The position numbers and the translations under genes are program-made. Below are positions 2,445 through 3,477 of a stretch of DNA of 9,150 nucleotides, piece after piece; positions within the stretch are counted from its first letter, which is position 1, and each line of letters begins with the position of its first letter. The notes under the pieces are model-generated. The model saw only the letters and a list, made by a program, of their open reading frames with translations. It was not told the origin of the DNA and did not search any database. Origin of the DNA: Escherichia coli (GTDB lineage: Bacteria > Pseudomonadota > Gammaproteobacteria > Enterobacterales > Enterobacteriaceae); the NCBI RefSeq assembly GCF_003334255.1, contig NZ_QOWU01000091.1; one strand, given 5' to 3'.

Positions 2445-3285
2445 TTATTCCCCATAACCCAACGCCTCCAGATCCTGGCGAATCGCACGATCCAGTTCAT
2501 CCACCTGCTTCATCTGCTCAAACAACGTCTTCGACAAATCCTGCATTTTCGTCTCAAATGCCACTCCGTCTTCTTCCTGCCCGGCTGCACACACATAGCG
2601 GCCCGGTGTCAGTATGTAGTCGTTATCTTTAATATCAAGCAGGGTCGCAACTTTGCAGAAGCCCGCTTGGTCTTCATATTTTTCCAGCTTGCTGTCACCA
2701 CGCGCAATCCGTGCAGCCAGTTCTTCTGGCGTGCTGCGCCAGCGCATGATAGGTATCGGCGATGGTGGCAATATCTTCCGTCGTTAACTCTTTAGTTGTG
2801 CGGCTAATCATGGTGCCGAAGTTACGCGCATCAATAAACAGCGTCTCGCCCTGACGATCACGATAACCTGTGGCCGGGTCGGCAACCTTCGATTTGGTCA
2901 TAAACCATAAACACACCTAGATCTGCGTGGTGTAAAACAACTGACCTGGCAGAGTGATCATGCAGTCGATCAGATCATTTTCGATCATCTGTGCACGGAT
3001 CTCGCCTTCACCGCTGGTGTTAGAACTCATCGAACCGTTTGCCAGCACAAAACCTGCTGTGTCGTTAGCCGACAGTCTGGAGAGCATATGCAAAATCCAA
3101 CCGTAGTTAGCGTTATCGGTAGGCGGCATACGATAACCAGCAAAACGTGGGTCTTTGGTTAATTCGGCTTCATTACGCCAGTCTTTCAGGTTGAACGGCG
3201 GGTTCGCCAGAATGTAGTCGGCTTTCAGGTCCGGGTGCTGGTCGCTGAAGAAGTACGATATGCCAAAATGGTTGAAACGTACCAC
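2445..3285 (-). pseudogene. hsdM: Type I restriction-modification methyltransferase (HsdM) remnant: 5'-truncated, with an in-frame TAG and a +1 frameshift
   Basis: Three consecutive minus-strand ORFs (2917..3285, 2695..2916, 2445..2771) together encode an N6-adenine MTase C-terminal half: [19 protein letters not shown] (motif IV), [43 protein letters not shown]. The first two are in the same frame, separated only by TAG at 2917..2919. The second and third are joined by a 1-nt shift near 2742..2745. The N-terminal ~half and any hsdS/hsdR are missing. Confidence 0.8.
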
Positions 3286-3477
3286 ATCAGTATGGTAACA
3301 AGGAAATATGTCTATGACGTCGTGAATTCCCCCGGATTTATATTCCTGCAGGGCCGGATAGCGGTCTTACAAATGAACACTCCAAAATATTCAGAGGTGC
3401 CCCCTGTTCTGAGCAATATAATGAAGCCACCACCGCCTGCTACAGGAGAGCAGGAAGTGTCACCCGACAACATACAG

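Follow-up and report, generated by a model that had tools for sequence, protein, structure and literature searches.

Does the methylase-like DNA lying beside an intact nuclease gene in this stretch of Escherichia coli DNA (9,150 nucleotides in all, hereafter the window) represent a restriction system that its host has lost only recently, or a piece of scrap that decayed before it was spread with its present neighbours? The initial annotation, made from the letters of the window, favoured recent decay, since few and discrete lesions were noticed in the reading frame. Comparative analyses were performed against intact type I restriction-modification (R-M) operons, complete E. coli genomes, other species and metagenomes. 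The feature is very probably a dead 892-bp internal piece of a type I R-M operon, made up of the back half of hsdM and the start of hsdS.

Identity and ends of the remnant

Two reference operons, those of strains Combat11I9 (L002) and 13E0767 (L003), both with a 1,620-nt hsdM and the gene order M-S-R, served for the delimitation of the remnant. On the minus strand, positions 2445..3253 correspond to codons 272-539 plus the stop of a 539-codon type I methylase gene. The blastn homology to a single HsdM (539 aa; both references) is colinear from window position 3253 (nt 813 of 1620) to the stop codon at 2445-2447, with an identity of 94.8% to the 13E0767 gene and 92.4% to that of Combat11I9, while in tblastn HsdM residues 272-441 match 3252..2743 and residues 442-539 match 2741..2448, in another frame. 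Codons 272-539 align in order to both references and to five further Escherichia alleles, and the earlier reading of the fragments as parts of one HsdM is borne out by both programs.

The alignment to intact genes that had been proposed for placing the lesions and the breakpoint located the 5' breakpoint at 3253..3254, with at most 1 nt of shared sequence where the hsdM homology stops. The resemblance between the window (…ATATCGTAC|TTCTTC…) and intact hsdM (…GCAGACACC|TTCTTT…) is lost upstream of 3253, and the first 11 codons of the open reading frame 2917..3285 are not hsdM. The loss of the N-terminal half had been recognized correctly and comprises codons 1-271, but its junction, formerly sought within 3286..3477, lies at 3253/3254. 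Starting at residue 272, the remnant is devoid of the HsdM_N domain (PF12161) and of AdoMet motif I, which in the intact protein is DPCCGSAGMF at residues 210-219. The catalytic motif IV is kept (NPPF at ~3204-3193; ANPPFN, residues 287-292, at ~3207-3190 of the window). In the family test, which employed TIGR00497 together with PF12161 (HsdM_N) and PF02384 (N6_Mtase), the conceptually repaired translation of 268 aa reaches 69.8 bits for TIGR00497, against a cut-off of 242.75.

The blastn alignment to the Combat11I9 operon runs on past hsdM into hsdS, as far as 2362. The resulting 5' stub of hsdS (2362..2455, minus strand) encodes residues 1-29 of an L002-type HsdS (tblastn, E = 2e-12), starts at 2455-2453 so that the hsdM stop is overlapped by 11 nt, and is terminated by a TAG (2362-2360) made at the junction with the adjoining DNA. 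It also carries a 6-bp in-frame tandem duplication, AAGTGG AAGTGG, at 2435..2446 (minus strand), visible as a 6-nt blastn gap relative to Combat11I9. Neither a full-length hsdS nor an hsdR adjoins the remnant, HsdS being represented by residues 1-29 only. The earlier statement that both genes are absent is upheld for hsdR, no fragment of which was found in the window or, in related genomes, over as much as 33 kb of this island (the sole HsdR match being a generic helicase motif in the TOTE gene), but not for hsdS, of which the 29-codon stub (2455→2362) is left. Because the AdoMet-binding half of HsdM, nearly all of HsdS and all of HsdR are gone, neither methylation nor restriction is predicted to be possible from the remnant.

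Members of the intact 539-aa HsdM family, all in the order M-S-R, are represented by WP_057722698.1 (13E0767), WP_001029742.1 (EC9) and the protein of E. albertii NBRC 107761. Over codons 272-539 the remnant is 94-95% identical to this family in nucleotides and ~93% in amino acids, and it resembles the family in the 11-nt hsdM/hsdS overlap and the retained NPPF. It differs in the loss of codons 1-271, of hsdS past codon 29 and of hsdR, as well as in an amber codon, a frameshift and 16 private amino-acid replacements. Among solved structures the intact HsdM of 13E0767 is closest to 3khk_A (E = 9e-135), followed at a distance by the methylase subunits of EcoR124 (7bst_D, E = 2e-38) and EcoKI (2y7c_B, E = 3e-18). 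By these matches the source gene is firmly assigned to the type I HsdM superfamily, at a distance from the type IA (EcoKI) and type IC (EcoR124) prototypes; the remnant itself is no functional member.

The second end of the piece was defined by comparing three sequences with one another: the window, native efp (L004) and hsdS (L002). At 2362..2366 the hsdS stub abuts the first 38 nt of an efp copy on the opposite strand, in an illegitimate join at a GTCT/AGTCT microhomology of which 4 nt, GTCT, are shared (window CTAGTCT|GCCC; native efp CTGGTCT|TAAA; hsdS in reverse complement GAGTCT|GTCC). The efp' sequence belongs to a decayed second epmB'-efp' copy of 354 nt (2013..2366), 94% identical to the native E. 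coli epmB-efp locus, which is also present elsewhere in every genome. To this scrap epmB' contributes 92 codons (2287→2013, minus strand) and efp' its first 12-13 codons (2329-2366, plus strand), with the epmB-efp intergenic region (2288-2328) in between; partial matches to TIGR03821 and TIGR00238 are obtained. Its 354 nt carry 21 private substitutions, with replacements at 7 of 91 epmB' codons and at 4 of the first 12 codons for EF-P, a protein that is otherwise invariant, and it displays the same kind of decay as the hsdM remnant.

Lesions, substitution pattern and age of the decay

Both frame-breaking lesions noticed at the outset are confirmed and can be described exactly. An amber codon (2917..2919, minus strand) replaces Pro383 (CCG→TAG) through two adjacent substitutions, at 2919 and 2918, at a position occupied by Pro in 120 of 121 homologues. 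Past codon 441 a +1 frameshift (2742..2743, minus strand) results from the change of a single A to GC, CATGCATGG in the intact gene reading CATGCGCTGG in the remnant. An uninterrupted reading frame is accordingly absent, TAG and frameshift being common to all copies compared.

The surviving codons had been described as otherwise clean, which does not hold: the remnant carries 27-29 private substitutions, ~70% of them non-synonymous and some at invariant residues. Relative to five intact E. coli alleles, 29 of its bases are private (20 non-synonymous in 17 codons and 9 synonymous), the 17 codon changes amounting to 16 amino-acid replacements and the amber; relative to seven Escherichia alleles, including that of E. 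albertii, the number is 27 (19 non-synonymous and 8 synonymous). The intact alleles pooled show 49 private changes, of which 9 are non-synonymous and 40 synonymous, so that the non-synonymous share is 18% compared to ~70% in the remnant (19:8 versus 9:40, Fisher p = 1.3e-5). Random mutation of the remnant sequence would be expected to yield 72-78% non-synonymous changes, stops included, and about one stop per 27 substitutions; 70% and one stop are observed. By this measure the substitution pattern is indistinguishable from neutrality and different from that of functional alleles. Pairs of intact alleles likewise differ at 15-40 of 807 nt with just 1-6 amino-acid differences, whereas the remnant differs from them at 41-60 nt and 17-21 amino acids. 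Several of the replaced residues are invariant or nearly so when scored over 113-121 homologues, down to ~55% identity: G317D (G in 112/113), K330R (117/117), G335D (120/120), G492C (121/121) and N531D (118/121), with A371T also at an invariant or near-invariant position.

It is concluded from this pattern that the private branch of the remnant (~3.3%) is essentially all neutral decay. Some of the substitutions counted as private could, however, stem from an unsampled source allele. Among the representatives of 100,044 species, one genome each, no closer intact source allele was found, the closest relative having 93% amino-acid identity and belonging to Escherichia and the next-best representatives (85-86%) belonging to Klebsiella, Citrobacter and Superficieibacter. 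In a homologous-protein search, which missed the full-length E. coli proteins, most matches were partial proteins, with an identity of 86% at most.

As the copies of the surrounding module are near-identical across assemblies while the remnant has diverged neutrally by ~3.3%, the decay is inferred to be older than the spread of the module and not recent in the host, contrary to the age that had been read from the small number of lesions. The count of frame-breaking lesions is a poor clock, and it is the private synonymous/non-synonymous pattern that gives the estimate of ~3% neutral decay.

Island setting and possible origin

The window belongs to the accessory DNA of E. coli. Its positions 90-9073 show an identity of 99.9% to several NCBI E. 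coli assemblies (L007, L011, L012 and L016) and of 97-99% to seven complete RefSeq genomes. The corresponding region of strain Ecol_AZ146 is part of an island adjoining tRNA-Thr/proA, which carries a Salmonella-like iol (myo-inositol) cluster (srfJ, iolG1, iolE, reiD, iolA, iolB, iolT2, iolT1, IS110, iolR). Past iolR, RefSeq lists an ‘EF-P beta-lysylation protein EpmB’ pseudogene, an ‘N-6 DNA methylase’ pseudogene, an Rpn-family nuclease, a hypothetical gene, a ‘TOTE conflict system archaeo-eukaryotic primase domain’ gene and an inovirus-type Gp2. The same gene order is found in E. coli ED1a (CU928162), the iol cluster of which has been described in the literature (PMC9430895). The Ecol_AZ146 pseudogene (BE932_RS23910, ‘missing N-terminus’) and the ED1a locus represent the same fragment as that of the window, with 100% identity over window 2000-3500 in L001 and the same junctions, lesions and neighbours (epmB pseudogene, iolR, rpn, TOTE). 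The window differs in that 90-9073 is bracketed by IS66-family and IS3-family ends, which are not seen in the Ecol_AZ146 and ED1a assemblies. The chain of scraps is hence situated between iolR, at the right end of the iol island, and the rpn/TOTE cargo of a tRNA-associated integrative island.

This arrangement was recovered in 7 complete RefSeq genomes, in 10 places found via Rpn and in 10 found via IolR, ED1a included. Identity over 90-7744 amounts to 98.1-99.9% at the ten places with the exact IolR protein, and the gene order is the same at 20 of 20 Rpn/IolR places among the matches listed, the collection containing 269 blocks with the exact Rpn protein and 1,140 with the exact IolR. More than 20 independent assemblies thus carry the module in near-identical form. 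Over window 2000-3500 the identity is at least 99.87% in 11 independent assemblies, with 4 variable sites, none of which falls on a lesion or junction. The near-invariance of the fragment among carriers could in itself be read as conservation. Differences among carriers amount to 0-2 per 250-nt bin throughout 90-5250, save at two indel sites, ED1a sharing in this near-invariance, and the equal invariance of this flanking DNA points to a recent spread. A related iol island in E. coli Z1323MEC0001, with an iolR 84.5% identical, has lysR/dcuC adjoining iolR and no scraps. The invariant chain iolR - epmB' - efp' - hsdS' - 'hsdM - spacer - rpn may serve as a lineage marker for the iol island module.

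On its other side the remnant is followed by an orphan spacer of 206 bp (3254..3459), which extends from the hsdM breakpoint to the end of the rpn-associated homology. The bounds formerly given for this DNA (~190 bp at 3286..3477) have to be moved. No match to it was found outside the module. This applies to distant-mode blastn against plasmids, phages and 5,426 complete genomes of E. coli, to an exact 22-mer in viral contigs, to an exact 23-mer in the species-representative genomes and to sensitive blastn against rpn relatives and intact hsd loci. A plus-strand open reading frame in the spacer, compared with 5.8e9 proteins, has no match but itself, the contig in question (4.2 kb, from a ‘K. 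pneumoniae’ assembly) corresponding to window 3211-7430. A weak terminator-like hairpin is present at 3406-3392 on the minus strand, 72-86 nt past the rpn stop; the spacer RNA has no Rfam match and folds no better than shuffled sequences (z = -0.36).

The intact rpn gene (3478..4455, minus strand; RefSeq WP_072276355.1), encoding an Rpn-family recombination-promoting nuclease (TIGR01784, 174 bits against a cut-off of 52), points toward the remnant. The rpn homology in L005 stops at 3460. Between rpn and the TOTE primase-helicase there is a C-terminal fragment of a YagK/YfjJ-like gene (4555..4755, minus strand; tblastn, 40% identity over 67 aa, E = 2e-13), and an open reading frame at 4729-5109 has no Pfam or NCBIfam match. 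The TOTE helicase lies beyond the YfjJ-like fragment and forms a separate mosaic unit.

At the ends described above, two illegitimate joins have cut the remnant from an hsdM-hsdS-hsdR operon. One links hsdM at codon 271/272 (3253/3254) to the orphan DNA downstream of rpn, and the other links the piece, after hsdS codon 29 (2362-2366, 4-nt microhomology), to the decayed efp'-epmB' scrap. Evolution of the piece has been unconstrained, as seen in ~27 private substitutions, the amber, the +1 frameshift and the 6-bp duplication. Its source may have been an hsdMSR of Escherichia type, located behind a YfjJ-like gene in the cargo of an island. Two contexts were observed for the closest intact alleles, namely a chromosomal restriction locus with the order mrr-like gene, hsdM, hsdS, hsdR, symE (L002, L019, L020) and the cargo of Gp2/YfjJ-type islands (L003, L021).

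The island-borne alleles allow this history to be refined, tentatively, into an older cargo swap, in which a CP4/Gp2-type island carried hsdMSR downstream of a YfjJ-like gene, the insertion of rpn and the spacer deleted the 5' half of hsdM, and hsdS-hsdR were lost afterwards, by deletion or by fusion with the iol island. Such a course of events is possible, although it is not the one that we would bet on. In 13E0767 the order is Gp2, zinc-ribbon genes, YagK/YfjJ, a hypothetical gene, hsdM, hsdS and hsdR, and in the nearest island-borne alleles (L003, L021) hsdM stands two genes downstream of YagK/YfjJ; in the window the order is Gp2 (62% aa), TOTE, the YfjJ-like C-terminal fragment (40% aa), rpn, spacer, 'hsdM and hsdS'. 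The YfjJ-like fragment is colinear (blastn, tblastx) with the YfjJ-like gene upstream of the intact hsdMSR, and rpn with ~300 nt upstream recurs as a unit in other contexts. The colinearity of the two loci lends weak support to an old swap in which rpn and the spacer replaced the 5' half of hsdM. However, the backbone genes share no more than 40-62% identity, YfjJ-like genes are found throughout islands of this type, hsdMSR systems of this family are also present at the chromosomal mrr-symE locus, and no intermediate was found among the loci compared. The swap is a historical refinement of the preferred explanation and offers no functional alternative to it.

That a type I R-M system was resident at this locus and decayed recently in the host lineage, perhaps after replacement by the block from rpn to the helicase, is improbable. 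The small number of frame-breaking point lesions (two) and the absence of hsdR agree with it, as does the order of a Gp2-type gene, a YfjJ-like fragment and hsdM, which is that of 13E0767, where hsdMSR is intact, with rpn and the spacer standing where the hsdM 5' half would be. The private divergence of neutral pattern, which extends to invariant residues, contrasts with the near-identity of the assembly copies. In addition, the search of related strains for an intact hsdMSR at this site returned none in 27 places, and both ends of the remnant are illegitimate joins to unrelated scraps, so that the locus was never demonstrably an hsd locus in E. coli. As to the proposed replacement, the synteny with 13E0767 puts rpn and the spacer, not the helicase, in place of the hsdM 5' half, TOTE being located beyond the YfjJ-like fragment.

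Possible recombination at the remnant, and its annotation

A scan of metagenomes with a 24-mer of the spacer returned three contigs. Two of these are the same module, and one of them (L116) reproduces the IS66/IS110 junction of the window. Over window 3078-4205 the third (L118, 3.9 kb) shows 100% identity; there follow in it an hsdM 3' half with an open frame, a full-length hsdS and the beginning of hsdR, and its exact HsdS is also found in native complete systems elsewhere. If real, L118 would mean that the remnant can recombine with live hsd loci. It was rejected as a ‘missing link’: it is a single metagenome contig of 1.9x coverage, its hybrid open reading frame is unique in the whole collection, and it forms a three-part mosaic in which the switch falls in the most conserved stretch of HsdM, as is typical of assembly chimeras. 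L118 is probably such a chimera.

The chain located 3' of rpn, which comprises the spacer, 'hsdM-hsdS', efp'-epmB' and the orphan segment 1811-2012, is very unlikely to be a fossil of Rpn-promoted illegitimate recombination and/or of an exchange between the remnant and hsd genes. Similarly, little credence can be given to the remnant being a live recombination substrate, or to the chain being the footprint of RecA-independent recombination promoted by Rpn. With ~95% identity to resident hsdM genes the remnant could exchange with intact hsd loci, as L118 appears to show, and four unrelated fragments are indeed joined with 0-4 nt of homology beside rpn. Yet the exchange would be documented by the doubtful L118, and nothing links the activity of Rpn to these joins. 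An exapted role of the remnant, for instance as the 3' UTR of rpn or as a homology patch for recombination, may be conceived.

The notion that errors of sequencing or assembly account for the TAG and the frameshift, the gene fragment being translatable otherwise, can be dismissed almost entirely, as the lesions are identical in 11 independently assembled genomes (the amber in 11/11), in further places and in metagenome contigs, ED1a has the same frame split as the window, and the N-terminal half is missing whatever the status of the two lesions.

RefSeq already annotates the feature as a pseudogene (‘N-6 DNA methylase; frameshifted; internal stop; incomplete’), and its biological weight is slight, a dead gene fragment of this kind being ordinary pseudogene scrap with no plausible function. 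What the present delimitation supplies to the annotation is the breakpoint at codon 272 and the hsdS stub, efp' stub and YfjJ-like fragment, of which the two stubs have no RefSeq annotation and the YfjJ-like fragment is likewise unannotated. Some gene callers give three separate ‘N6_Mtase’ open reading frames at the remnant.

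Variation among carriers of the module

Across the E. coli assemblies that carry the same module (L001 and L007-L016), the stretch at 90-5250, which runs from the IS110 element through iolR and the chain of gene fragments to rpn, is virtually invariant. The region encoding the TOTE primase-helicase and the inovirus-type gene Gp2 (5250-8550) is mosaic, some of these assemblies showing as many as about 30 differences per 250 nt. This suggests an exchange of alleles in defence-type genes.

The rpn gene and the interval towards the TOTE gene

In relatives with 90% identity, megablast similarity is lost downstream of position 3684, which indicates that the C-terminal 68 codons of Rpn represent a different allele type. 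The C-terminal region of the gene contains, at 3584-3643, a 12-nt unit in four tandem copies, which encode (AQGM)n. The interval between rpn and the TOTE gene encodes, on the minus strand at 4555-4755 (ORF 4552-4863), a C-terminal piece of a YagK/YfjJ-like protein that is missing from the annotation and shares 40% identity with the YfjJ-like gene preceding the intact hsdMSR in strain 13E0767. The same interval holds a conserved plus-strand ORF of 104-126 aa (4729-5109; WP_016237738.1 in RefSeq), which has no match in Pfam or NCBIfam.

The hsdM remnant in annotations and in other contigs

Automatic gene callers make three 'genes' of the hsdM remnant (122, 68-73 and 100 aa, within 2445-3285; L007, L012, L022 and others), and an N6_Mtase Pfam match is obtained for two of the three. 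These calls are an over-annotation of a pseudogene.

Contigs of other origin also carry part of the remnant. One, a singleton metagenome contig with a coverage of 1.9x (L118; ERZ773208 NODE_10155), comprises the equivalent of window 3078-4205, with the same junction of rpn, spacer and hsdM at codon 272, followed by the 3' half of an hsdM with an open frame, a complete hsdS and the start of hsdR, all three originating from a different type I system. This contig probably arose as a chimera during assembly; were it genuine, it would represent a recombinant. Another (GCA_050378235.1, contig JBNRQI010000333.1; 4,220 nt) comes from an assembly that bears the label Klebsiella pneumoniae. It matches window 3211-7430 at 99.98% identity and ends 43 nt within the remnant, and reflects either contamination or a transfer of the module outside Escherichia.

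The epmB'-efp' scrap and the ends of the block

A second, decayed copy of the epmB-efp locus is found at 2013-2366. It encompasses 92 codons from the 5' end of epmB, the sequence between epmB and efp, and the initial 12-13 codons of efp. Its identity with the native locus is 94%, and it carries 21 private substitutions, 11 of which change an amino acid. On one side (2012/2013) the scrap adjoins DNA from upstream of iolR, and on the other (2362-2366) it is fused to the hsdS stub. Roughly 200 nt (1811-2012) separate the iolR-associated homology from epmB', and just left of the latter lies a pentanucleotide tandem repeat, (AAGTT/GTTAA)n, at 1966-1988. The 250-nt bin containing this repeat differs from the window at 5-6 positions in every other assembly, and at 30 in L008, possibly owing to a difference in repeat length.

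The block as a whole (90-9073) is flanked by an IS66-family (ISEc23-like) end at 1-89, which truncates the IS110 transposase gene (ORF 63-683), and by an IS3-family end at 9074-9150. Neither end is present in the isolate assemblies compared; the left junction, at the IS66-family end, is also found in a metagenome contig (L116).
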